Positions 144-50,380 of a stretch of 64,000 nt of DNA are shown piece after piece. The stretch lies in the IMG/VR virus record IMGVR_UViG_3300030618_000005. One strand, given 5' to 3'. A program made the position numbers and the translations under genes. The stretch comes from a virus. Lineage: Duplodnaviria; Heunggongvirae; Uroviricota; Caudoviricetes. The notes beneath the pieces were generated by a model. The model worked only from the letters and a program-made list of their open reading frames with translations. It was not told the DNA's origin and ran no database searches. Numbering within the stretch: the first letter of the stretch is position 1; each line of letters begins with the position of its first letter.

Positions 144-1346
144 TTAGGCATAACTCTCCTCTTCCATCACCAGCTTGACGCCGTTGTTGTCGTCATCATC
201 TGGGTCACCCATAACGGGCCGGTTCAACTCTTCACGGTACTCGTCGCGCACCATCTTCCACGCAGCCTGCGACGGGTCTTTGCCATCGTAGGCCATGAAG
301 CAGAGGCCAGAGTACTTGCCGTCCTTCTCGGTTAGGAAGAACTCAGCAACAGACTTGCGACTCTCGTAGTTGCGGATAAGCGCATTGTCTACGATCTTCT
401 TGGTCTGAAGCATGATGCCAGCGTACGCAGTGGTGAAGGTCTTCTGCCACTCCTCAACGAAGCTCACAAGCTCCGGTCGGCCAGCATCCTTCGTCCATGT
501 CTCGATGATATCGTAGTCCCCGTTCGTCAGCGCCTCAAGGATGTTCTTCGGGGTCGCCGCGTGAACAATCTTCTGGAGCTTCAGGAAGGTCTCATGCTTC
601 ACCTTGATCTTCAAAGGCGGAAGGTTGGGCCGCCAGTACGACAGCACGTAGCCCTCCGTGTTCGGTCGATCCTCTACTAGAACCGTGCTCACCGTCTTAG
701 CAAAAATCTCGACGGTCTTTAGTCCGTTCAGGAATGCGTAGTGGTACAGCTCGTTGTAGCTAATCTCTTCGCCGGTCTCGTTGTTGATGAGCGCCAGTAA
801 GACTAGTTGATCTTCGATCTCGTAATGAACCACGTGGCGTTGAACTGCCTGCGCGATCATCTCAAAGACTGGTGTGTAGCCCGCAGGCCACTGGTGGTTC
901 TTGCAGTGCTTACTGAACCAGTACGTCGCCCACTTGGAGTGGTCAGACGTGAATGATCCTTTGGACGCGACACCGAAGAACGTATCGTTCCCTACCTTGT
1001 ACTCGTAGAAGATACCGAGTGACCCATCCAGCTTGTCGAAGACAGCAGGGTGTTGGTCCGGCAGATTGGTGAACAGAGTCTCAGGCCGGTCCAGCGTGTC
1101 GATGTTGAAGAACTTCTCGAACGGACGAGAGATGATGACACCCTTGTCGTCCACGATGAGACCACGGCACTTGATGGTGATGTCGTCCCAGACGTTATCA
1201 AAGGTCGCCTGCTTGCTATAGCAGAGGATCGACAACGGAAGCTCAGGGTGAGCGCGACGGGTAACTAGACCCTCCGCGATATACTGCTCAAGCTTGTCTA
1301 CGTCGAGGTAGTCTTTTAGCAACATTACTTCAGCTCCTTGGTCCAC
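144..1346 (-). CDS. rnlA: ATP-dependent RNA ligase, T4 RnlA (Rnl1)-like
   Basis: Motif I KLDGSL, CRGLIV..SRPFEKFFNID block, EGYV and LKIKVK motifs align by eye to T4 Rnl1. Confidence 0.75.
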   Translation of the reverse strand: MDQGAEVMLLKDYLDVDKLEQYIAEGLVTRRAHPELPLSILCYSKQATFDNVWDDITIKCRGLIVDDKGVIISRPFEKFFNIDTLDRPETLFTNLPDQHPAVFDKLDGSLGIFYEYKVGNDTFFGVASKGSFTSDHSKWATYWFSKHCKNHQWPAGYTPVFEMIAQAVQRHVVHYEIEDQLVLLALINNETGEEISYNELYHYAFLNGLKTVEIFAKTVSTVLVEDRPNTEGYVLSYWRPNLPPLKIKVKHETFLKLQKIVHAATPKNILEALTNGDYDIIETWTKDAGRPELVSFVEEWQKTFTTAYAGIMLQTKKIVDNALIRNYESRKSVAEFFLTEKDGKYSGLCFMAYDGKDPSQAAWKMVRDEYREELNRPVMGDPDDDDNNGVKLVMEEESYA

Positions 1347-1756
1347 ACACTACTGGTTATCTTGCGCCCCATTGCAGCAGCGGCCTTCTCCATCGGCTCG
1401 TTACCGTGAACGACTAGACCACAGACCTTCTTGCCGCCGTGCTTCAAAGTCGCTTTCTCAAACTTCTTCCACATGGCCTTGTAGATACCACGCCCGCGAT
1501 ACGCCTTGTTGACCCAGCCGAGTTGAACCCAGCCTGAATCGTCATCCTCATCGAAGAAGTACTGGAGGATTCCAACTACCTTACCCTTGTCTTCCACGTA
1601 GAAGCACGCCTGATCCCCACGGATGGGTGACCACATACCGCCTACTGCACCGATCTCGATCATATCTGGCACAGCTTCAAGAAACGCAGTCTTGATGACC
1701 TGCGTGTTCTTGGCTGCGTCAATGTGCTTCACGACGATCTTTTTCTTCTTCGCCAT
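1325..1756 (-). CDS. GNAT family N-acetyltransferase
   Basis: RGRGIYKAM acetyl-CoA binding motif; 143 aa. Confidence 0.6.
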   Translation of the reverse strand: MAKKKKIVVKHIDAAKNTQVIKTAFLEAVPDMIEIGAVGGMWSPIRGDQACFYVEDKGKVVGILQYFFDEDDDSGWVQLGWVNKAYRGRGIYKAMWKKFEKATLKHGGKKVCGLVVHGNEPMEKAAAAMGRKITSSVWTKELK

Positions 1757-2141: not shown

Positions 2142-3044
2142 TTAGAAGGTGATGTCGCCGTTTGCTTCCTCGACGTACTCTGCATCAATGATGGTAGAGG
2201 TTGTCGAAGTCACAGCGGAGTCGATATCAGTCTGGGTGGAGGCCACAGCCTGCTTCGTCTCACCTTCAAGAGCCTGCTGCTCGAACTGTAACGCACGCGC
2301 AGTCTGCTGCTCTTGGAACTTTTCAAACACTACACCGAAGGCCGCCTGCTCATCAGCGGTACTCGCCTGAAAGTCATCGAACTCCAGAATGTAGTAAGCG
2401 TACTTTCCGTCCTGCACCTTCTTCGTACTGATACGGAAGTTCACGTCGTAGATGTTGGGGTTGATCTTCTTGGCTGCCGCGATCATCGCCAGCTTACGCG
2501 CAAGGTTCTTCATACCCTTCTCAAACGGCTGCTTGCTCTTCGAACGAATGTACAGTTGCAGAGGCATCTGGTACACAGTGTCGATCAGTGTGGCGTAGTA
2601 GAACGCATCACAAGGAGGGATGTCGTCCTTGGTCGTGGGAATGTTCTTGTCTTTCTTCGCACGGAAGGCCGACCAGTCCTGCTTGGGACAAGTCTTACAG
2701 GTCATCGCCTGAGGGTACTTCGCACGCTTGTCTGGCTCAATCATGTCGAGCGAGAAGCAATGCAGGTTCTCGGGTATACGGTTCAGCTCACCGACATTGC
2801 CGACGTAGTAAGAACGTCGTTCCTGCGGCTCTGCGAGGAGGGTTACGCGCATCGTCTCGAACTCGTCACCGGTCTCTGGGATGATAAGGTTGCCCTTCTT
2901 CCCATCGCCTTGACTAGACGGCTGCACTATGCTAAGGGTTGCGGGCTTGAGGTCAAACAGCTTGCTCTTCCCGAAGAACTGCGCCCCGGTGGGTACGCTA
3001 AGGGCCGCAGACTCCTGCCCTACAATCGCTAACTCGTTGCTCAA
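2142..3044 (-). CDS. hypothetical protein; possible gp32-like zinc ssDNA-binding protein
   Basis: 300 aa, His then Cys..CxxC cluster, acidic C-terminal tail; weak. Confidence 0.3.
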   Translation of the reverse strand: MSNELAIVGQESAALSVPTGAQFFGKSKLFDLKPATLSIVQPSSQGDGKKGNLIIPETGDEFETMRVTLLAEPQERRSYYVGNVGELNRIPENLHCFSLDMIEPDKRAKYPQAMTCKTCPKQDWSAFRAKKDKNIPTTKDDIPPCDAFYYATLIDTVYQMPLQLYIRSKSKQPFEKGMKNLARKLAMIAAAKKINPNIYDVNFRISTKKVQDGKYAYYILEFDDFQASTADEQAAFGVVFEKFQEQQTARALQFEQQALEGETKQAVASTQTDIDSAVTSTTSTIIDAEYVEEANGDITF

Positions 3045-3123
3045 ATGAATCCTTGGTGCCTACTTCTTGGAAGCCCTACGGTGTTCTGTGCTCCCTCACT
3101 TCACTTACTAATGTAACACGTAT

Positions 3124-3438
3124 CTATACGTTTGTCAAATCCGCGTGCAACGGTTGATACATGAAGAACTGAACCTTTTTAGACTCATCGACCGGTGGTA
3201 GGTCGCGCAACTCTGATACTCTCATGAAGGGTGTCTGCGCCTTCAGGTTGGCAATGAACTTCTTGTTGTAGTAGATTGCCGTGAGCGCCTGTGGGTTGCT
3301 CAAGTTGCTGGCAGGAGAATAACCTCCTGTGACCGCTTTGACCACAGGGTTAGCAACGAATATGCTAGGAAGCACCGGCATGATTACCGGGGCCGCCGCC
3401 CATGCTGCAATGCCTTTTAGAAAGCCACGTCTATTCAT
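3124..3438 (-). CDS. Tat-signal protein carrying a copy of the major capsid N-terminus
   Basis: N-terminal MNRRGFLKG plus hydrophobic h-region; C-terminal 65 aa align with MCP residues 1-65 (KKF..NLKAQTPF..SE..LP..MY.PL). Confidence 0.55.
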   Translation of the reverse strand: MNRRGFLKGIAAWAAAPVIMPVLPSIFVANPVVKAVTGGYSPASNLSNPQALTAIYYNKKFIANLKAQTPFMRVSELRDLPPVDESKKVQFFMYQPLHADLTNV

Positions 3439-3778
3439 GATGCTCTACGCTCACTGGAGGGATAAAGCGCCGGGTCACTCCCGGCATCCCAGACCGAACC
3501 TCTACCCAGCCCTCAGGCGGGTCTCCGAAGTCTGACTCCCAGAGGTAGTCGGCCCACTGACCAATGGTGGCCTTCATGACCGACTCAGACACGATCTGAT
3601 CCATAGCTTGTCGGTAGACTTGTGCAGGCGTGCCGGGGAACCGGAACGGTAGACGAGGGTCGCCTAACGGAACCCATGTGAAAAGCGTTGGGTGCCATGA
3701 CTGGCCCGGTCGCTCCATCAGCACTTCGCCCTGCTCTGGTTCGTAAGGCGGGACTACAGGGTATCGAATCTCACTCAC
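3431..3778 (-). CDS. hypothetical protein
   Basis: ORF coupled to flanking genes. Confidence 0.4.
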   Translation of the reverse strand: MSEIRYPVVPPYEPEQGEVLMERPGQSWHPTLFTWVPLGDPRLPFRFPGTPAQVYRQAMDQIVSESVMKATIGQWADYLWESDFGDPPEGWVEVRSGMPGVTRRFIPPVSVEHHE

Positions 3779-5285
3779 TATCGGCTCCCTTCGTCAGGTG
3801 GTGCCACGGGTACACATCCAGTTGCCAACACGTCGGACTGTAGCACCTCGGCGCTCCGTGGTTCCCGTCGCAGGTCACCATTGGTGTCCACGGGTCCGAA
3901 GCTACACACGAGGTCAGCTTCTTGCCAGTGCCTATACCACTCGTCGTCGCCCCATTCGTTGAGGCTGGTTTGTCCTTGCATGGTTCCTCGTCTCTGAACT
4001 TCCGGCCCAGCACGTCCATCAGGCTGGCCACGTTCTTAGGTTCGATAAGTTCGCCATCTACGTCGCGCTTGTACCCCAGAGCTTTGTAGCTCAGGTCTAT
4101 CGGATGCTTGGACGCGAACAGATCATTACAGGCTTTGCATCCCTTCCCATCGTTGCAGGTCGGTTTGCGGCTGCCCTTGTAGTTCTTGAATGCCTTGCAT
4201 TCGAGCTGTAGGGCCTCTTCCTGCTCTTGCTTCTTCTTTGCCTTGGCCTCGGCCTTCGCCAGTGCCTCCGATTCGTCCTTGGCCTTCTTAGCGGCTTGCT
4301 TCTCCGCTTTGATGGCGTCCCTCAAAGACTGTTTTCGTTCTTGGATGCGGGACTCGATCTTGCGGACTCGACGAACAAGGTCAAGAGCATCAATAAATCC
4401 ACCAAAGTCATCCACGAAGTTATGCGATTCAAGGTGCCATGTTTCAAATTCGCCGTCGTCTTTACCCAGTCGGATGATCCATCGATCCTCAACCACCTCG
4501 CCGGTCTCTTCTTCATAGGCCGCCTCATAAGCCGCTGTCTGTAGCAAGTACTCCAAGTACAGGTAGTTCGATGTCTTCCAGTCCGCTACCGTCAGCCGGT
4601 CCTTGAACGGATGGGGGCAGCATCGCGGGTTGTCGCACGAGTCCACTTCACACAAACCGTCCAGTGTACCGGCATACTTGTGCTTGCGACTGTAAATCTT
4701 TCGCTCGGTGAATCTCCACCGGACGTTGTGCTTCTGCATCCAGTCGAGCGCGGCCTTGGTTGCGTTCAGCGCCCGCTCATCGAGCTTGGCACGCTTCCAG
4801 CCCATGTGATCCTTCACCGCCTGCGTAAACAATGCGTATGCTTCGGTGTCCATCACCTCGGCAGACTTCAGCTCCTTCTGCCAAATCTTCAGCTTGATGT
4901 ACTGCTCGATCCAGTCATGCGCGGAGTGACCGATAGCACCGGCCTCTTCAAGCTTCTCCTTGTGGGCACCCTTAGCGTCCAAGACCCACTTCTCAAGGTC
5001 CGGCACAGGGATGACGTGGCATGGGGGAAAGCCCACTACTGATCCCGGCACATCCTTCAGGAGCTTTTGGGCCATCATCTTGCAACCCCACGGCACGAGT
5101 GCAGCGGACTTGTCGATGATGTGGCAGACGGTCGTAACACCGTCCTGTGGTTCCAGCTCCCCGGTTTCTGTTTCAAGCAGGTAGACGTGGGCATCCACAT
5201 CGTACCTGATAGTCACCTCGCCATTGTAAAACTTATACTCTTCGGTGATGCCACCAAACTGTTTGATGAATCCTTCTAAAGCCAC
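3771..5285 (-). CDS. PD-(D/E)XK (RecB/Cas4-like) nuclease with Cys-rich C-terminal region
   Basis: VADWKTS..Y..QTAAYEAAY nuclease motifs; internal GRKFRDEE motif. Confidence 0.55.
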   Translation of the reverse strand: MALEGFIKQFGGITEEYKFYNGEVTIRYDVDAHVYLLETETGELEPQDGVTTVCHIIDKSAALVPWGCKMMAQKLLKDVPGSVVGFPPCHVIPVPDLEKWVLDAKGAHKEKLEEAGAIGHSAHDWIEQYIKLKIWQKELKSAEVMDTEAYALFTQAVKDHMGWKRAKLDERALNATKAALDWMQKHNVRWRFTERKIYSRKHKYAGTLDGLCEVDSCDNPRCCPHPFKDRLTVADWKTSNYLYLEYLLQTAAYEAAYEEETGEVVEDRWIIRLGKDDGEFETWHLESHNFVDDFGGFIDALDLVRRVRKIESRIQERKQSLRDAIKAEKQAAKKAKDESEALAKAEAKAKKKQEQEEALQLECKAFKNYKGSRKPTCNDGKGCKACNDLFASKHPIDLSYKALGYKRDVDGELIEPKNVASLMDVLGRKFRDEEPCKDKPASTNGATTSGIGTGKKLTSCVASDPWTPMVTCDGNHGAPRCYSPTCWQLDVYPWHHLTKGADSE

Positions 5286-5720: not shown

Positions 5721-6965
5721 CTATCTCCTTTTCGTTAGAAGTGCGCCTTGGAACTGAGCCATCGTATCGCCTTCTGGCCGCCCCTTGACAAAAGAGGTCG
5801 CCTGTGCTAGGGAATCCTCCGGGTAAAAGCGTTGGTACAGCTTGATCTTCTGATCGTCGGTCGCTTGACCAAGGTGCAGAAGTACATCGATCCGACCGGG
5901 CCTAATCAACGCCGGGTCCAGATTGTCGAGATGGTTCGTGGTCATGATGTAGATCACGCCGCTAGGGGCATGAAAGCCATCGAGAACATTCAGTAACCCA
6001 GATAGTGTAACACCAAACAGCTTCTCGTGTCCATCACTATCTTCAACTTTGTTCGGGTGGGGTCCGGGTGTTACGCCTTCCTTCCACTCCTGATCCCTTG
6101 GGCCGTCATTAGTGGCCTTGCGTTTCTTGCCAGCACCAGATGCGTCGATGTCCTCGAACATGATGATCGAACCTTCGGGCACAGTGCTTATCGCAGTCTT
6201 CAATCCCTTGTCACTCAGGTCACCAAGGTTCATCAGGTAAATGTCCCGGCTCAGTTGGTACGCTAACCCTGACGCCAAGGATGTCTTGCCGGTCCCCGGA
6301 GGCCCATAGAAGGCGTAGCCACGATGGTAAGGGATACCCAGCTCCCTATAGCGTTCCTTGTCGCCTAGGAACTCGTTTACGTCTTGCAGCAGTTTCTCCT
6401 TCTCCTGCCCGTCGAGCACCACGGACTCAAACGTACGCGGCGAATAGCTCCTCAGCTTTATCCAGTACTCGTCCCACACATACAGCTTGCTCTCACTACG
6501 CTCAGCCTCTTTGTGAATCTCGATGATCTCGGTAACGAACTGCTTGATGCGTTCCTGCCTGCGGCCAATCGTGCTGAAGGAGATTGTCTCACTCCTCTTC
6601 GCGTCCCAGCCGCCCTTCTTATCCTCGCTCCGCGTGTAGTTCAGCCAGAATGGTAGACGCTTGTGCCAGAAGAAGTGCTCCCCCGGCGCGGGCATCAGAG
6701 AGATGAGCTTGCCACGGATGGTCGAGTCAAGATCGACGCGGCGTACACGCGGCATGAATTTCTGCTTGGTGATCCACTCCTTCACCCAAAGAAAGGAAGG
6801 GTCGTCGTCCTTCACTGTTACGCTTACGAGTACTTGTCGTTTGAACCAGAGCCAAATCATCTGCGGCACTGATTTCATGTAGGCCATCACACCACCCATA
6901 ACTAGAAGCATTGCTCCACTGGCGGTAAACTGATTCAACATCTCAGGTGGTAGCCCTATGAGCAT
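5721..6965 (-). CDS. BCS1-like AAA+ ATPase with N-terminal transmembrane segment
   Basis: Walker A GPPGTGKTS, Walker B IIMFEDIDAS, GVTLSGLLNVLDG, PALIRPGRID; N-terminal TM. Confidence 0.75.
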   Translation of the reverse strand: MLIGLPPEMLNQFTASGAMLLVMGGVMAYMKSVPQMIWLWFKRQVLVSVTVKDDDPSFLWVKEWITKQKFMPRVRRVDLDSTIRGKLISLMPAPGEHFFWHKRLPFWLNYTRSEDKKGGWDAKRSETISFSTIGRRQERIKQFVTEIIEIHKEAERSESKLYVWDEYWIKLRSYSPRTFESVVLDGQEKEKLLQDVNEFLGDKERYRELGIPYHRGYAFYGPPGTGKTSLASGLAYQLSRDIYLMNLGDLSDKGLKTAISTVPEGSIIMFEDIDASGAGKKRKATNDGPRDQEWKEGVTPGPHPNKVEDSDGHEKLFGVTLSGLLNVLDGFHAPSGVIYIMTTNHLDNLDPALIRPGRIDVLLHLGQATDDQKIKLYQRFYPEDSLAQATSFVKGRPEGDTMAQFQGALLTKRR

Positions 6966-6993
6966 CTAGTCCTCGTCCTCTCTAAGCTTACTG

Positions 6994-7206
6994 TCATATC
7001 TCGATATCTCCCAGCGTAACGGTTACGCTCCTCGGCTGCACGGTAGCGTTGCAAGTCTTCCACGGCTTGACTCGGACGGTGGACGACGATAGGCTCTCAA
7101 CGTAGCCGTGTCGCCAGCCCTCATCATAGTACCGCACGAAGGAATCGGCCACGAGTAAACACGCTTTGCGGATATCAAATGGCCGTTTCCATCTGCGGGG
7201 TTTCAC
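6994..7206 (-). CDS. hypothetical protein
   Basis: ORF in array. Confidence 0.3.
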   Translation of the reverse strand: MKPRRWKRPFDIRKACLLVADSFVRYYDEGWRHGYVESLSSSTVRVKPWKTCNATVQPRSVTVTLGDIEI

Positions 7207-7670
7207 TATACTACCGTCCTGTTCTTCTTGTTGAAGCGATTCTCCAGCCGGTTGAGGTTCACATCGCCCCGTTGAACGACTGTACGCTTCTCAGTACCGT
7301 TAGGTTGAACCCTAACACGGACCACAGTGGCGGGTCCATTCTTAGGATAGGTCTTGAATCCATCCTTCGACTTCTGCTTGGCCTTGAACGCGGCCTGAGC
7401 CTTCTGCTTTGCTGCTTGAATCGCCGCCTTGTCCGGCCCTAGGTAGTAGTGCGGGAACTGCGGGGTGTGGCTGAAGTGACCACCGCGCTCATGAGTCTTC
7501 TGGGCGAAGCGCCAACCTTTGAGCCATAGATCACGCTGCGGGTTGGTAGTGTACGGAACGTCGATGCGTTGCGGTTTGTGGTCTGCTCCAAAGTATCCAG
7601 TGCTGTAAGCACCATAGTATGCGTCGTAACCGGCCTTGAGTGCGCCGAGTGAAGCCTTCTTGTTTGACAA
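7206..7670 (-). CDS. ribosome modulation factor (Rmf)-like domain protein with basic C-terminal extension
   Basis: GYDAYYGAY..VPYTTNPQRDLWLKGWRFA matches Rmf core GYQAG..CPYQTLNQRSQWLGGWREA. Confidence 0.5.
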   Translation of the reverse strand: MSNKKASLGALKAGYDAYYGAYSTGYFGADHKPQRIDVPYTTNPQRDLWLKGWRFAQKTHERGGHFSHTPQFPHYYLGPDKAAIQAAKQKAQAAFKAKQKSKDGFKTYPKNGPATVVRVRVQPNGTEKRTVVQRGDVNLNRLENRFNKKNRTVV

Positions 7671-44983: not shown

Positions 44984-47113
44984 ATGGCTGAACTAAATGA
45001 AGCTCCGGGGATAGTCGCGGACGGTGTAGCACGTGAGACGCTTGACCCATTGGACTACGGCAAGGGTGGAACCCTCAAGACCCTAAACGCTGACCTAGCA
45101 CTCGTGCTTGGAAGCGCCAGCAAAGCCGAAGCTTTCATCAGCGAGAAGCAGTGGAACCTCTTGTGGCGTGATGCCGACTTGCTCTACCAGTCGCCGCGCC
45201 CGATGTCAGTGTACGAGAACACATACGTCCTCGAACCTAACGTACAACGATTTACAGTAGCAAAGGTAGTGAACTCTGTCGTACCCTCTCTCTACAAGGG
45301 CCTGTTCTATGCAGACCCTCCGATGGTACTCCGACCGCGCTCAGGCACGAGTCAAGACACCATAGATGCCAAGACCGTGCTCTTCAGCTATTTGCTGAAC
45401 GACTGTGGATTCAAGACCGAAACCAAGTGGGGACTCGAACAGATGGCTTGCCTCGGCACCGGCATCTGGAAGTGGGGAGTTGACTACAAGGAAGTGGTAA
45501 CGTGGGAACGCAAGTCCACTACGACCACGATCACTGGTGGTGTAGGACAGGATCAGGTCACGCAGAAAGTTCCTCTGGATGTACCCCCAGACGTGAAGCG
45601 TAAGTCCCGTGTTGTGCCGCGACCGTTCTTCGAGTCGCGCCCGATCAACAAGGTGTTCGTAGACCCGAAGTGCGATGTCGGGGATATCCGCAAAGCAGAC
45701 TTCGTGATCGACGTTCGCTACATGGACTTCTACCAGCTCAACGATATCCGCGCAGCTCTCGAAGAGCTTCCCGAAGATCACCCGGACAAAGATGGGTGGG
45801 AGTTGCCGAAGTCTGAAGACGAGCTTCGCAAGTGGTGGTTCGCACCATCCGGCACGAACGTAGCACCAGTACTCGCCAGCGACACAATGGCGTACATGCG
45901 CGGTGCAGTTCACCATGCTGAAGAGATGAACATTCAGGTGACCCCTGACATGCTCTTCAAGAAGATGGAAGTGCTTGAGTATTGGGATAGAAACCGCAAG
46001 GTTCTTGTCATCGACCGCAAGAAAGTGATCTTCACCGGACAGAACAAGTTCGGCGTTATCCCGTTCCTCAGTGCAAACTGGTGGAACCGCGCCAAGGCAT
46101 TCTACGGCATGGGCCTCGGCCTTATCGTCGGACAGAATCAGCGCGTCGACCAAGGCACCATCAACGCAATTCTGAAGATGCTGTCGTTCGGGATCAACCC
46201 GATCTATCTTCGCCAGCGCGACACAAACGCGCCGACGCAAATGATACGCACCGGGATCGGTAAGATTCTAACTGTGGACGGTATCGCCAAAGAAGCATAT
46301 CACCTACTCGACACTCCTAAGGTTCCACCAGACATCTGGTCGGCCCTAAGCGAGTCAGAGAAGGCAACCGAGTCCGCATCGGGCGCAGATCAAGCGCTCG
46401 TACAAGGCTCGTCATCCGGCCCCCGTTCTTCTATGGGGCGCACCGCAGGAGGCGCAGGCATCCTCGCAAGTGCAAGCGCGACTCGTCTCGACGGGCCGCT
46501 CGACAACTTCATCGAACAGGTGTTCAGCCCGTTCCTCTACATCCTCGACATGCTCGTCATGCGATACCTATCAGACGCCGAGATTTATGCAGTACTGGGC
46601 GAAGAGATGGGCGACGACTACGAAGTAGACCTTGACCAGTTTCACGCGGCTAAGATCGAGTTCGAAGTACTGGCCGGTGCCGCGCTTGCGGCGAAACGCA
46701 CAATGGCGCAGTCGATGACTCTCATCACACAGATTCTTGAGAACCCCCAGATTGTTGAATCTCTCGCTGACATCAACGAGGAGTACATCAACTGGAAGGA
46801 AATCGTCATGATGTGGATCGAGTCAACGGAGTGGAAGAACAAGAACGACATCATCAAGAAGATGACGCCGGAAATGAAACAGAAGCGTGCCGCTGCATCG
46901 CAGCAGGCGCAGGCCGCGTCCAAAGCCGCCGTTACTGCACAGAGCAACCAACAGAAGTTCCAGCAGAAGCAGCAGCTTGAAGACCAGTCTAACGACAATC
47001 GCATCAAGCGTGACTTGGTACGTGAGTCGTTCAAGGACAACGCTCAGAGTGAAGCGACCGAAGGGTTGCCGAGCACTGGCGGGTTGGAAGGACAACAGCC
47101 TACAGTTGCATAA
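44984..47113 (+). CDS. portal protein (by position and size)
   Basis: 709 aa directly after terL; Q/A-rich C-terminus. Confidence 0.55.
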   Translation: MAELNEAPGIVADGVARETLDPLDYGKGGTLKTLNADLALVLGSASKAEAFISEKQWNLLWRDADLLYQSPRPMSVYENTYVLEPNVQRFTVAKVVNSVVPSLYKGLFYADPPMVLRPRSGTSQDTIDAKTVLFSYLLNDCGFKTETKWGLEQMACLGTGIWKWGVDYKEVVTWERKSTTTTITGGVGQDQVTQKVPLDVPPDVKRKSRVVPRPFFESRPINKVFVDPKCDVGDIRKADFVIDVRYMDFYQLNDIRAALEELPEDHPDKDGWELPKSEDELRKWWFAPSGTNVAPVLASDTMAYMRGAVHHAEEMNIQVTPDMLFKKMEVLEYWDRNRKVLVIDRKKVIFTGQNKFGVIPFLSANWWNRAKAFYGMGLGLIVGQNQRVDQGTINAILKMLSFGINPIYLRQRDTNAPTQMIRTGIGKILTVDGIAKEAYHLLDTPKVPPDIWSALSESEKATESASGADQALVQGSSSGPRSSMGRTAGGAGILASASATRLDGPLDNFIEQVFSPFLYILDMLVMRYLSDAEIYAVLGEEMGDDYEVDLDQFHAAKIEFEVLAGAALAAKRTMAQSMTLITQILENPQIVESLADINEEYINWKEIVMMWIESTEWKNKNDIIKKMTPEMKQKRAAASQQAQAASKAAVTAQSNQQKFQQKQQLEDQSNDNRIKRDLVRESFKDNAQSEATEGLPSTGGLEGQQPTVA

Positions 47114-47149: not shown

Positions 47150-47602
47150 ATGGGGGAGCACCCCAACAGCCAAATTCCATATCACTGCCGGGGAGGGCTA
47201 GTGATCGAACGCAGCATTTCAAATTTCGTACCCATCCTTGTGTTAGCACCTCATGAGCAGGCGGAGATTACGCAGACCATTTCTTCTGCTGGCTGGCGAC
47301 ATATACAGCGAATCTTCGATCATGAATGCACCAAGTTCATATTGGATACCATCAATACTCCGTCCGAAGATACAGAGGACGTGATCGAGAAACACCGATG
47401 CGCCAAGGTAGCAGCTCAGCTCTATGAAGGCGGCGTCCAGAGAATCAATAACGAAGTCGGTCAGTACCTCGGCAGCCGCAAGGCCCTCGAAGTGCAGGCT
47501 GACGTAACAGACGGCGTGCTTCAGATGGGGCCGCCAGCAAGTACATCTGACGATCTACTTGAGTCTTCTGAGGAGGGGACGATCTTTGACCACTTTGAGT
47601 AA
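47150..47602 (+). CDS. hypothetical protein
   Basis: ORF. Confidence 0.35.
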   Translation: MGEHPNSQIPYHCRGGLVIERSISNFVPILVLAPHEQAEITQTISSAGWRHIQRIFDHECTKFILDTINTPSEDTEDVIEKHRCAKVAAQLYEGGVQRINNEVGQYLGSRKALEVQADVTDGVLQMGPPASTSDDLLESSEEGTIFDHFE

Positions 47603-48662
47603 CGAACAAGAGAACGGCATTCCTTCGGACCTGCCAGAACTTCGCTTTGAGTATCAGCCGACTGACGAAGACAACCGTCCCATCGGCGGCAAGCAGGTCA
47701 TCAAGTACCGCACGCAGGATGAGCTGAACCATAAGCTCGTCAAGCAGAACACTGAGCTTATCCGAAAACTGCGAACAGAGACTCGCAACAACCGTCTGGG
47801 AATCCTAGACCAGCAGTCTATTGACGAGAGAGCACCGCGCAACGTCGCGGGTGTGCAGTTCAATCCGCGCACGCTAAGCGCCTCAGAGCGCCTAGAACTT
47901 TCCCAGCAGCTCCTAGACCCAGAAACGTTCGACAAGGCCACACAGACCATCGTGGAGGCTTCCTACGGCATCTCTGGCGAAGGTCTGCGCACCGTCATCT
48001 CTGACCTTCAGGGCAAGGTGGACAACGTACAGGCTCAGCGAGAAGTTGACATCTTCAAACGTCGCAATCCCGAGTACGTAATTTGTCCCGAGAACATGCA
48101 GGCCATTATCGGCTGGATGGATCGTTACAACCTCGCGCCGGTCGCAGAGAACTTCGAGAAGGCTTACCTGTTCCTCTTGGATCAGGGCGTATTGGTTACG
48201 TCGTTGGAAGTCGTAGAACTTCCCGTCTCTCCGGTAACACCGCCTAGCAATGTCGTGGGATTCACCGAGCAGCCTCCTGCCGATCCAAACGAGTACGTCG
48301 AACCGGCCCGCGTGGTCGAGACGCTTCCGATTGAGAACCAGCTTCCAGTCGAGCGCGTTGCTCCTACCGAGCACCCGGCATTGGCTACAGAACCGCCTGT
48401 CGCGGCTAAGCCTGTTGCCTCAAGGGTTCCTACCGGCCTGAACAATGGCAACTCCCGCAGTGAGGGCGTAAGTGCTCCTGTAGGAAGTGACATCGTTTAC
48501 GAGTTCAAGCAGTATGACGAGAAGGGAAATCAAGTCGGTCCCACGCGCACCTTCACCGGTATGCGTGCCATCGACGCGATGCCGCCCGACGAGTACAAGC
48601 GCCGTCTGCTGAGCGAGAAGGGATTCGCCGCTAAGGTTGAGAAGTTGATGAAGAAGGGCTAA
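47559..48662 (+). CDS. hypothetical head-module protein (scaffold candidate)
   Basis: Position between portal and capsid; Pro/Glu-rich linker. Confidence 0.35.
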   Translation: MSLLRRGRSLTTLSNEQENGIPSDLPELRFEYQPTDEDNRPIGGKQVIKYRTQDELNHKLVKQNTELIRKLRTETRNNRLGILDQQSIDERAPRNVAGVQFNPRTLSASERLELSQQLLDPETFDKATQTIVEASYGISGEGLRTVISDLQGKVDNVQAQREVDIFKRRNPEYVICPENMQAIIGWMDRYNLAPVAENFEKAYLFLLDQGVLVTSLEVVELPVSPVTPPSNVVGFTEQPPADPNEYVEPARVVETLPIENQLPVERVAPTEHPALATEPPVAAKPVASRVPTGLNNGNSRSEGVSAPVGSDIVYEFKQYDEKGNQVGPTRTFTGMRAIDAMPPDEYKRRLLSEKGFAAKVEKLMKKG

Positions 48663-49084
48663 TGGACATCAGGCTGGCGCTGCAATCTGAGACCGACTAC
48701 CTAGTCGATCAAGTGGAGCGACTGTATCCTGACGACATCTGTCCGAAGCATCAGTTGCGCAAGATACTTGCCTCCAACCCAGCGTGGGTCATCGTAGACA
48801 AACGCATCAAGGCGCACCTTATCTCGGAAGTCTCGAAAGGGACACCATACATCTGGAGTGTTGCAGTAGACCCTGACTATCGCAGACGGGGCGCTGCAAC
48901 AACTCTCCTACAAGAATTTGAGAAGCACTACAAGCAGAGCTACGAAAGTGGCTGGCTGCATTGTAGAGTCGAGAACCCTGCACAGAAGCTTTACTTCGAT
49001 CAGGGCTATCGCATCGCTTCCTTTGAACCAAACATTTACGGAGCACGACAGCATGGCGTGACCATGCGGAAACGCTTCGTCTGA
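48662..49084 (+). CDS. GNAT family acetyltransferase
   Basis: RRRGAATTLL motif A. Confidence 0.55.
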   Translation: MDIRLALQSETDYLVDQVERLYPDDICPKHQLRKILASNPAWVIVDKRIKAHLISEVSKGTPYIWSVAVDPDYRRRGAATTLLQEFEKHYKQSYESGWLHCRVENPAQKLYFDQGYRIASFEPNIYGARQHGVTMRKRFV

Positions 49085-49302
49085 AGTACTGTGTACAGTC
49101 CTGTCGGATTACAGGGAACGATACACCTTAGATATGTGCTGAGGAAAAGCCGGTCAGAGACCTTGACCGCGCAATCGCAAACACTCGTCGGATTACGAGC
49201 AGAGGGATTGTCTTCACATAAAAGGCAGCGACACACTACTCATCATCTCTGGGAGGAGAAGGCGAGAAGTAAGTGATGTCTTTGAAGTAAAGGATAATCA
49301 CA

Positions 49303-50334
49303 ATGGGTTACACTCCTGCTGGAAATCTACAGGGCAACCTTCCTCAGTCCACGGTAAAGTTCTATGACAAGAAGTTCCGTGAAAACCTCAAAGCGCAGAC
49401 CCCGTTCGTAGCTTGCTCCGAGCGTCTGGACCTGCCAACCAAGTCCGGTAACCAGTACGAAATGTTCATGTACGTTCCTCTGGCTGCGAACACCGCGCAG
49501 ACCAACGAAGGAACCGTGGGCAGCTCGATCTCCGTTTCCGTCCTTACCACGACTGCCACCATCGGTGAGTACGCTGACTACGCTAACTTCTCCAGTCTGT
49601 CTCTTGCTACGGCAATCGACAACACTGTTGAGAACGTCGCCCGTGAGCTTGCATACCGTCTTGGCGAGTCTTTGTCTGGTCTCGTCCGTGCAACCGCTGA
49701 CGGCGCAGCCAGCGTTGACTCCAGCGTGCTTGTGCAGCTTGGTGCAACTTCGACCACAGCCTTCACCTCGCTGAGCCTGAACCAGATTCGTAACGCAGTG
49801 CAGTCTCTTGCTGGCCGTTCGGTACGTCCGTTCGACGAAGCAAGCAAGGCATTCTGCGGCGTCATTCACCCGTTCGCATTGGGCGATGTACTTTCGGATG
49901 TCAGCAACAACGCACCTATCGACATCTTGAAGCACACCCCGGTCGGGCTGATGAAGATGGAAGACCTCGTTTCGGTGGACTTGACCGAGATGATCGAACT
50001 TCCGTCCTCGGGCGTTCACTTCTTCCAGAGCAATCAGGTTACCACCACCCCGAACTACAAGGGTGTGACTGGCCTGACGGCGCTTCGTACCTACATCTTT
50101 GGGCGTGATGGCATCTACAGCATCAAGCTTGGAGCACAGGGCGACACCGAGTTCGGAGATGGTGAGTACCAGAACATCAAGTGCAACATTGTGCAGAACG
50201 CTGAGCCAACTGTTGCCGATCCTGAAGGGCTGATCCCCGGCTGGACTTCGTACCGCGTTCACTTCACGACTTCGCTTGGTCCTGACACGACCATCCGTAT
50301 CCGTGAGATTGATGCGGCTTCCGCAATCAGCTAA
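49303..50334 (+). CDS. major capsid protein
   Basis: Position after portal, strong RBS, followed by strong terminator; homologous to ORF 3124..3438. Confidence 0.65.
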   Translation: MGYTPAGNLQGNLPQSTVKFYDKKFRENLKAQTPFVACSERLDLPTKSGNQYEMFMYVPLAANTAQTNEGTVGSSISVSVLTTTATIGEYADYANFSSLSLATAIDNTVENVARELAYRLGESLSGLVRATADGAASVDSSVLVQLGATSTTAFTSLSLNQIRNAVQSLAGRSVRPFDEASKAFCGVIHPFALGDVLSDVSNNAPIDILKHTPVGLMKMEDLVSVDLTEMIELPSSGVHFFQSNQVTTTPNYKGVTGLTALRTYIFGRDGIYSIKLGAQGDTEFGDGEYQNIKCNIVQNAEPTVADPEGLIPGWTSYRVHFTTSLGPDTTIRIREIDAASAIS

Positions 50335-50340
50335 GACACT

Positions 50341-50380
50341 GGCTCCTGAGACTAAAAACCTCGGGAGCCATTTCTTTTTG
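50341..50380 (+). terminator. rho-independent terminator after capsid gene
   Basis: GGCTCC..GGGAGCC stem followed by ATTTCTTTTT. Confidence 0.65.

Follow-up and report, generated by a model that had tools for sequence, protein, structure and literature searches.

Genes and features at the locus

The window analysed here is a 64,000-nt stretch of DNA from a soil phage of the Caudoviricetes (IMG/VR record IMGVR_UViG_3300030618_000005). It contains a small open reading frame (ORF), 3124..3438 on the minus strand, whose product, read from its sequence, joins a leader of the twin-arginine translocation (Tat) type to a copy of the N-terminus of the major capsid protein (MCP) encoded in the same window. 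The combination had been pointed out in an earlier note on this DNA. The features on which the argument depends are as follows.

3124..3438, minus strand: small ORF (104 aa plus stop), Tat-type leader joined to a copy of the MCP N-terminus
3325..3438, minus strand: leader, residues 1-38, with n-region MNRRGFLK and twin arginine R3 R4
3133..3324, minus strand: payload, residues 39-102, copy of MCP residues 2-65 (N-arm and first E-loop strand)
49303..50334, plus strand: MCP (343 aa, N4-gp56-like HK97 fold), the type of protein from which the segment was copied
49306..49497, plus strand: codons of MCP residues 2-65

The small ORF starts with ATG at 3438..3436 and ends with TAG at 3126..3124; its protein begins MNRRGFLKGIAAWAAAPVIMPVLPSIFVANPVVKAVTGGYSPASNL. 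In BLASTP its residues 39-100 aligned with MCP residues 2-63, with 32 of 64 positions identical (50%, E=3e-15). The Smith-Waterman score of the two proteins is 133; shuffled sequences (n=2000), a comparison which the earlier note had proposed, scored 28.9 +/- 4.6 with a maximum of 58 (z=22). A hidden Markov model (HMM) of 336 positions, built from 13 full-length MCPs, matched residues 39-102 of the small protein to MCP positions 2-65 with 56 bits, and in all six frames of the whole window its significant matches were to the MCP and the small ORF only. The statement of the earlier note that the last ~65 aa align with the MCP N-terminus is thus borne out by three measures. So is its remark that the ORF stops straight after the alignment: the stop is located 2 residues past the HMM match and 4 past the BLAST alignment.

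The junction between leader and payload coincides with the MCP start codon, the MCP gene reading ATG GGT TAC and the small ORF GGA GGT TAT. Between the copy and the 5' end of the MCP gene the proportion of synonymous differences (pS) is 0.73, which means that synonymous sites are saturated and, therefore, that the duplication is old; the nonsynonymous distance (dN) is 0.47. Exactly at the same junction we observed a 9-bp stem-loop (3326..3348, minus strand) followed by AGGAGG, which encodes Gly-Gly. Initiation of translation at this internal site is unlikely because no in-frame start codon follows the AGGAGG.

The identity of the MCP itself was established by a match to phrog_1357, major head protein (E=1.2e-16), and by 95% identity to gp6 of Tunturiibacter phage Tunturi_3, annotated as 'major head protein'. 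Its score against NCBIfam TIGR04387 capsid_maj_N4 (N4-gp56 family major capsid protein) was 43 bits, under the cutoff of 60.

The payload corresponds to the capsid N-arm

The structural assignment of the payload was made through a sequence match to gp56 of coliphage N4 (PDB 9E99). The MCP-family profile matches gp56 best over the N-terminus, positions 6-79 of the profile falling on gp56 residues 13-86. The N-arm of gp56 comprises residues 1-46 and makes inter-capsomer contacts at the quasi-2-fold axis (PMC11768535). Given the extent of the profile match and of the N4 N-arm, the copied segment is taken to be the N-arm together with the first E-loop strand. The small proteins described below and the arms of MCPs share the consensus YYDKxFxxNLKAxTPF...LP..G...F.Y. 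From column to column the entropies of the two groups are also correlated (Spearman 0.61, p=3e-5), which speaks for a payload held to the constraints of the MCP arm.

The payload holds ~64 of the ~340 residues of an N4-gp56-type MCP; it has the same consensus residues as the homologous MCP residues 2-65, but lacks the spine helix, the P-domain and the A-domain and has an export leader in front, so that the small protein cannot form a capsomer. It covers positions 2-65 of 336, against about 330-400 aa for a full HK97 fold, and had no match among PHROG families. By this comparison the small ORF is a fragment copy and not a capsid protein. The AlphaFold2 model of the small protein shows short helices and no compact fold at low confidence (predicted local distance difference test score, pLDDT, 61; a model of the MCP made from 8 sequences had pLDDT 36). 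Such a non-compact model fits an arm that folds only on its partner.

A family of leader-bearing capsid fragments

Relatives of the small protein were collected by exhaustive HMMER profile search of 1.84 billion representative proteins (proteins and loci found are designated below by P and L numbers). The first search yielded 73 matches; many were MCP N-termini, while ~20 were proteins of 95-133 aa matching from the RR motif through the arm. About eight more members came from a second profile search, bringing the family to about 30 homologs of 85-135 aa, <50% identical to each other and with the same leader plus capsid-arm design. When 20 members were aligned, no column other than R3, R4 and P81 was invariant; F6, Y57 and L65 are conserved in at least 90%. 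The small ORF (P0001) belongs to this family by its RR leader, its match to the N4-type MCP profile and its end-to-end alignment with about 30 relatives; in relatives the payload also matches phrog_1357.

Members of the family carry more than the N-arm. Bit scores of individual segments were determined for isolated segments with the MCP HMM and compared with 500 shuffles each; for every segment so tested, all 500 shuffles scored below the genuine sequence. The E-loop return strand (positions 80-104, 'IGQYADYxNFS') precedes the arm in P0015, P0021 and, weakly, P0016 (25, 17 and 8 bits, respectively), and a 'RTYIFGxDG' strand (positions 251-269) precedes it in the L014 protein and P0060 (about 14 bits). 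In L010 (10001..10626) two adjacent leader-bearing genes have different MCP pieces: P0084 has the N-arm, and the gene that follows (98 aa) has a 'TYLAGSDA' strand along with MCP positions 136-189 (20 bits) and also matches phrog_1357 positions 157-222 (E=6e-4). Positions 84-132, the return strand and spine helix, were found in L030 and L034 (about 11 and 7 bits for two stretches, unshuffled scores). The family also provides natural cases in which the HK97 fold is reduced to minimal sub-structures in permuted order.

The same leader, often with P-(T/K)-Y-F-F-A-P-I-G-G-W, precedes many payloads not related to MCP in IMG/VR and JGI contigs. A large set of phage ORFs of 75-180 aa (L015-L019, L022-L045 and L049-L055) has one leader type, M(N/D)RRxFLK with an Ala-rich h-region and P(T/K)YFFAPIGGW(K/H)S, followed by unrelated C-terminal payloads. 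Few ORFs of this set have MCP-like segments, as in L030/L034; one is possible in L038/L039, where a 'WYCHP' motif was seen by eye with no HMM match. The reverse situation was observed too: P0045, P0052, P0042 and P0073 are small proteins with the MCP N-arm motif and no Tat leader, two of them with Cys-rich zinc-ribbon-like insertions and one with permuted arm pieces. Other architectures thus make use of the arm module too.

Proteins made of this leader and a capsid segment are covered by no family of Pfam, PHROG, NCBIfam or PADLOC; P0001, P0015 and P0082 had no match in PADLOC-DB at E<=0.01, and literature searches on phage capsid decoys, or on capsid fragments with a Tat signal, turned up nothing relevant. 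When the small ORF and the neighbouring 300-aa gene were each used as a single-protein query against IMG/VR, no match was obtained. As far as such comparisons go, the family is apparently new as a protein class, as we found no described family with capsid fragments behind an export signal.

The leader

The leader agrees with the Tat consensus S/T-R-R-x-F-L-K, the small ORF reading M-N-R-R-G-F-L-K. Its h-region of 21 aa, GIAAWAAAPVIMPVLPSIFVA, has a mean Kyte-Doolittle value of 1.83 and three prolines. The c-region, NPVVKA, has a basic residue (K) and a possible V-K-A|V cleavage site as judged by eye. This site is not kept: the equivalent in P0002, the ortholog described below, is V-R-V, and in most of the family no AxA is usable, the +1 position often being Pro.

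Among the 20 aligned members there were matches below threshold to models of Rieske-type leaders, UCR_Fe-S_N in five and TM_PetC in two (25.6 versus 37.1). Besides, the family motif P-(K/T)-Y-F-(F/L)-(A/P)-P-x-G-G resembles 'KYFIPPSGG' of PetC. The protein of the small ORF itself had no match to the Rieske-type models PF10399 and PF25471 and has no Rieske 2Fe-2S domain. Like the Rieske/PetC-type Tat signal anchors, it has a Z-R-R-x-F-L-K motif, a moderately hydrophobic h-region and a basic c-region; unlike them, it has no cofactor-binding passenger domain, and its relatives score below the curated cut-offs of the Rieske-type models. In some members this resemblance to Rieske/PetC leaders points to an anchor that stays uncleaved. 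Tat-type selection on the leader is indicated by the invariance of R3 and R4, by the near invariance of F6, by matches to Pfam TAT_signal in 15 of 20 members (all below the gathering score) and by the narrow pass of the small ORF with TIGR01409. We consider it likely that the leader serves genuine Tat targeting.

Selection on the small gene

P0002, a 119-aa ortholog with 64% identity, occupies the same position on a 6-kb contig (L001), where the order of genes is BCS1-like AAA, exonuclease, small ORFs, P0002, 300-aa gene. It keeps MNRRGFLRG and carries an in-frame 15-aa insertion in a loop. The ratio dN/dS between the small ORF and P0002 (Nei-Gojobori) is 0.24 overall, 0.22 in the leader and 0.26 in the payload. 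At the same time the small gene diverges faster than its neighbours, with 73% amino acid identity at aligned positions against 81-96%.

The earlier note had argued against a simple duplication remnant; the dN/dS value of 0.24, the in-frame indel and the ~30 homologs with the same design all support this view. That the ORF is a real gene, has the leader plus capsid-arm architecture and belongs to the family is, from comparison of the sequences, very likely.

Relation of payloads to capsid protein lineages

Relations between payloads and MCP lineages were derived from identity tables and column bootstraps, with short sequences and a set of MCPs that are not independent; the small proteins were grouped by leader type, independently of payload. 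The arm cores of the small proteins have a mean identity of 0.35 among themselves and 0.34 to the arms of MCPs. Leader group B pairs with MCP lineage M3 in 493 of 500 column bootstraps and leader group E with lineage M2b in 439 of 500; for the leader group of the window the association is ambiguous. In the three genomes holding both proteins, the genome's own MCP ranked, out of 30, fourth as a match to the payload in the window, fifth in L014 and first in L052.

A payload thus tends to be similar to MCPs of the lineage found in its own genome, to the extent that alignments this short allow. A single ancient duplication followed by independent divergence is disfavoured both by the near equality of the two mean identities and by the association with MCP lineages. 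The pattern is suggestive of repeated capture or homogenisation, i.e. of selection to resemble the contemporary capsid protein.

Possible functions of the small protein

Capsid proteins are not known to act anywhere but in the cytoplasm and the virion. One could propose that the leader is recognised by TatC of the Acidobacteriota host and that the payload, short and largely unstructured, crosses to the periplasmic face of the inner membrane; the Tat system accepts short, unstructured, hydrophilic passengers. There the payload would be set free or else stay attached through an uncleaved, Rieske-like signal anchor. It would then bind a partner of the MCP arm and act as a competitive mimic, since the same conserved contact residues are kept and whatever binds the real arm could be expected to bind the payload. 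Our prediction, a tentative one that we hold at somewhat less than even confidence, is that the small protein is a Tat-targeted capsid-arm mimic acting outside the cytoplasm.

As to the use of such a mimic, one could speculate that it is most likely interference with related phages, by superinfection exclusion acting via proteins that have evolved to bind the capsid interior, or else the neutralisation of an envelope-located host factor that recognises capsid protein. Superinfection exclusion specifically is in our judgement decidedly unlikely. By functional analogy, drawn from general knowledge, the small gene may be likened to T4 Imm and Sp, P22 SieA and T5 Llp, which are likewise small, non-essential, patchy in distribution and expressed with early genes, and which are targeted beyond the cytoplasm, as is predicted here; in contrast to it, they have no sequence similarity, and none is built from a capsid fragment or has a Tat signal.

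Several observations weigh against an exported arm mimic. The first concern the leader. The earlier note had called it a textbook Tat signal; the N-R-R-G-F-L-K motif is indeed present, but HMM scores are borderline. The small ORF passes TIGR01409 by 0.5 bit only (17.2 versus the cutoff of 16.7), P0002 scores 16.0, just under the same cutoff, and with Pfam PF10518 the small ORF scores 17.9, below the gathering score of 22.7; Pfam TAT_signal matches 15 of the 20 family members, every one under the gathering score. The family also has no conserved AxA site. The others concern the payload and its partner. The correlation of per-column entropies given above is partly circular, members having been found by motif similarity. 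The payload of the window scores 153 against the MCP lineage of P0007/P0008, slightly higher than the 133 against its own MCP. We know of no periplasmic partner for a capsid arm in any phage. The remaining ones concern the distribution and placement of the gene. Retention of the gene in related phages, which the earlier note had proposed to check, gave a divided answer: the syntenic P0002 keeps the gene, but Tunturi_3 has none, its slot being filled by an unrelated 51-aa Cys-rich ORF. As the closest cultured relative lacks it, the gene is accessory and dispensable. Finally, three other phage lineages have the gene in the head module: in L014 it is located between terminase and portal, overlapping the end of the one and the start of the other; in L034 it follows the portal; in L052 it lies ~1 kb upstream of two large ORFs that, by size and order, are probably terminase and portal.

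The exported mimic could be one instance of a broader scheme of modular self-display in phages with N4-type capsid proteins. A Tat/Rieske-like leader cassette would repeatedly capture MCP pieces (N-arm, E-loop return strand, spine helix, P-domain strand, A-domain segment) and send them across the inner membrane as self-mimics that decide phage-phage or phage-host conflicts, either through superinfection exclusion specific to kin or by evicting or disarming an immunity that senses capsids. We regard this scheme as possible, though on balance doubtful; if true, it would make a new phage effector class defined by exported capsid mimicry.

The placements beside terminase and portal speak for head assembly over an early role in the periplasm and make it the main rival. 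The arm copy would dock in the cytoplasm on MCP capsomers, the scaffold or the portal vertex, for example occupying the N-arm sites that become vacant when the portal takes the position of a penton, or nucleating or limiting shell growth. The hydrophobic RR leader would tether the complex to the membrane or to the Tat receptor with no export, by analogy with the membrane-bound initiation of the T4 prohead. The payload does keep the conserved contact residues of the MCP arm, the N-arm of N4 makes its contacts between capsomers at the quasi-2-fold axis (PMC11768535), and some members resemble a permuted mini P-domain composed of E-loop return strand, 'RTYIFG' strand, N-arm and first E-loop strand. 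An N-terminal extension before the N-arm is reminiscent of the HK97-type delta domain and of scaffold-binding N-arms, N-arms being scaffold and inter-capsomer contact elements; yet here the extension is an RR signal-like sequence of 38 residues rather than a coiled-coil scaffold of ~100 residues, and no full MCP is attached. Against head assembly, in the window, L009 and L010 the gene is part of the replication/recombination block, and the structural genes are on the other strand; a simple membrane tether would not need strict invariance of RR; and Tunturi_3, with a 95%-identical MCP, builds capsids without the small gene. We consider a head-assembly factor unlikely.

Yet less probable is a sequestration mechanism, in which the payload binds a cytoplasmic protein that recognises the capsid (examples would be a host immune sensor of MCP or the capsid or scaffold protein of a competitor phage) and the Tat leader drags this protein to the translocon, or out of the cytoplasm, so disarming it ahead of late gene expression. 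The Tat system exports folded complexes where one partner alone has a signal, and MCP is sensed by more than one defence system (CapRel, Lit, PifA). Placement of the early type, patchy distribution and faster evolution (the 73% identity given above) are typical of counter-defence and accessory genes, and the presence of various conserved MCP segments in various members agrees with this mechanism as well. Yet no such capsid sensor has been identified, no PADLOC matches were obtained nearby or for the small protein, the mechanism has no precedent, and members located in head modules fit it poorly; it seems improbable.

Finally, a leader that is not of the Tat type (a generic Sec signal or a plain membrane anchor), or a functionless chimeric remnant of an MCP 5' duplication, would be compatible with the Pfam scores below gathering, with the lack of a conserved cleavage site and with the attachment of one leader to many unrelated payloads, which could reflect promiscuous capture of fragments, but is very improbable given RR followed by F/L in 20 of 20 divergent members, purifying selection on both modules, an arm motif kept in about 30 members of such low mutual identity and a frame that is intact despite saturation of synonymous sites relative to the MCP.

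Elements related to MCP or binding to it are known from conflicts between genetic elements: P4 Sid, CpmB of Staphylococcus aureus pathogenicity islands (SaPI), Ccm of phage-inducible chromosomal islands (PICI) and the Gol/Lit pair of T4 gp23. The Gol peptide of T4 gp23, sensed by Lit, illustrates that a short MCP segment can be the recognised entity. All of these are cytoplasmic, have no export signal and are encoded by a satellite or the host, whereas here a phage copies the arm of its own MCP. A conserved family of Tat-leader/capsid-fragment proteins would imply a hitherto unknown interaction of capsid segments outside the cytoplasm, a hitherto unknown membrane- or Tat-linked step of head assembly, or a new means of neutralising factors that recognise capsid protein. 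Any of the three would add a new effector class to the biology of phage-phage and phage-host conflicts. The 104-aa protein, together with the cultured relative Tunturi_3 and its host Tunturiibacter, gives a testable handle in the poorly studied phages of Acidobacteriota.

Genome context and relatives

The protein of 104 aa is found identical on 40 contigs (at least 23 contigs, from several metagenomes). Twelve kb of the window is identical to a European Nucleotide Archive (ENA) contig of 96,992 bp and 99.9% identical to several JGI and ENA contigs. Minus-strand genes up to about 37 kb make a replication/recombination block (exonuclease, RNA ligase, helicase), with the small ORF within it; structural genes, among them the portal gene (44984..47113), are on the plus strand from about 41 kb. 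The earlier note had placed the small gene in an early region, which is reasonable for such a block, as inferred from gene content only. In the window, as in L009 and L010, the gene belongs to the replication module, where a PD-(D/E)XK-type exonuclease gene lies upstream of it with a few small ORFs in between. The order on the minus strand is exonuclease (3771..5285), p115 and the small ORF as the last of the run. Two further features touch the small ORF.

3431..3778, minus strand: p115 (115 aa), directly upstream; its stop overlaps the ATG of the small ORF by 8 nt (ATGAATAG)
3110..3138, minus strand: promoter-like site, TTGACA-17-TACATT with extended -10 TG, a consensus match only

The 8-nt overlap makes translational coupling of p115 and the small ORF probable. 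The promoter-like site overlaps the last codons of the small ORF and would drive the next gene, 2142..3044.

The p115 protein is a mosaic of two modules. The N-module has the motif FxFPGxPxQVYRQA, shared with gp50 of Tunturi_3; the C-module opens with 'ATIGQWADY', similar to the E-loop return strand of MCP. Indeed, p115 carries KATIGQWADYLW, which resembles the MCP return strand ATIGEYADYANF; its match to the MCP HMM is weak and suggestive only (6.2 bits, E=0.95 in 4932 segments). In Tunturi_3 (L007 42137..42870 for the two genes), gp50 directly precedes gp49, a protein of 170 aa with a canonical Tat signal and an ALA|EA site. Since the N-module recurs before a Tat protein, we considered p115 as a conserved signal-peptide chaperone, yet this reading looks unlikely: the homolog in L046, P0086, precedes a membrane protein that is not of the Tat type, and other family loci have no p115.

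Tunturi_3, a podovirus of 97.6 kb with a 77-nm head, infects an acidobacterium from Arctic tundra soil (PMC11924767). It was the sole GenBank relative of the window. In megablast the match at the DNA level was limited to the MCP region (81% in the MCP), and the segment 2000..6000 had no match to GenBank phages. Tunturi_3 keeps the flanking RNA ligase, 300-aa protein and exonuclease with 40-57% identity. Over 48832..50350 of the window, aligned with 5993..7516 of Tunturi_3, the MCP is 95% identical in protein, while proteins of the replication module are only 40-57% identical; sequence identities of this kind would mean that the capsid gene was either exchanged recently or is exceptionally constrained.

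Upstream of the small ORF with its Rieske-like Tat leader, at a distance of 2.3 kb, there is a gene for a BCS1-like protein of 414 aa (5721..6965, minus strand), in which an N-terminal transmembrane segment is combined with an AAA domain and a complete BCS1_N domain (E=1.9e-24). Bcs1 has, to our knowledge, a single role, which is to move the folded Rieske protein across a membrane as a mitochondrial substitute for Tat. A BCS1-like AAA translocase as a dedicated partner of the small proteins was considered as a general rule and rejected, because the BCS1-like gene is absent from Tunturi_3 and from every other family locus, the L001 relative alone sharing it.

Some observations were made on MCP genes of other loci. 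In L011 (10001..11654) and L012 (547..2200) the MCP gene of a phage with an SU10-type portal is split into parts matching HMM positions 1-183 and 183-336, with a gene for an HNH endonuclease (phrog_5046, E=1.5e-22) between the halves; it is probably an intron or a split gene. The MCP ORFs P0005, P0009, P0017, P0018, P0020, P0063 and P0074, as well as L014 10805..11020, are extended in frame at the N-terminus by 45-75 aa, the added part starting with basic residues and including a hydrophobic stretch. These extensions are probably longest-ORF gene calls across a long 5' untranslated region of the capsid gene.

There are also two genes for GNAT acetyltransferases in the window. The one at 1325..1756 (minus strand) has a match to Pfam Acetyltransf_1; the one at 48662..49084 (plus strand) was called only from the 'acetyltransferase' annotation of Tunturi_3 gp5. 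The latter sits between a putative scaffold gene (47559..48662) and the MCP gene, an unusual place for an enzyme.

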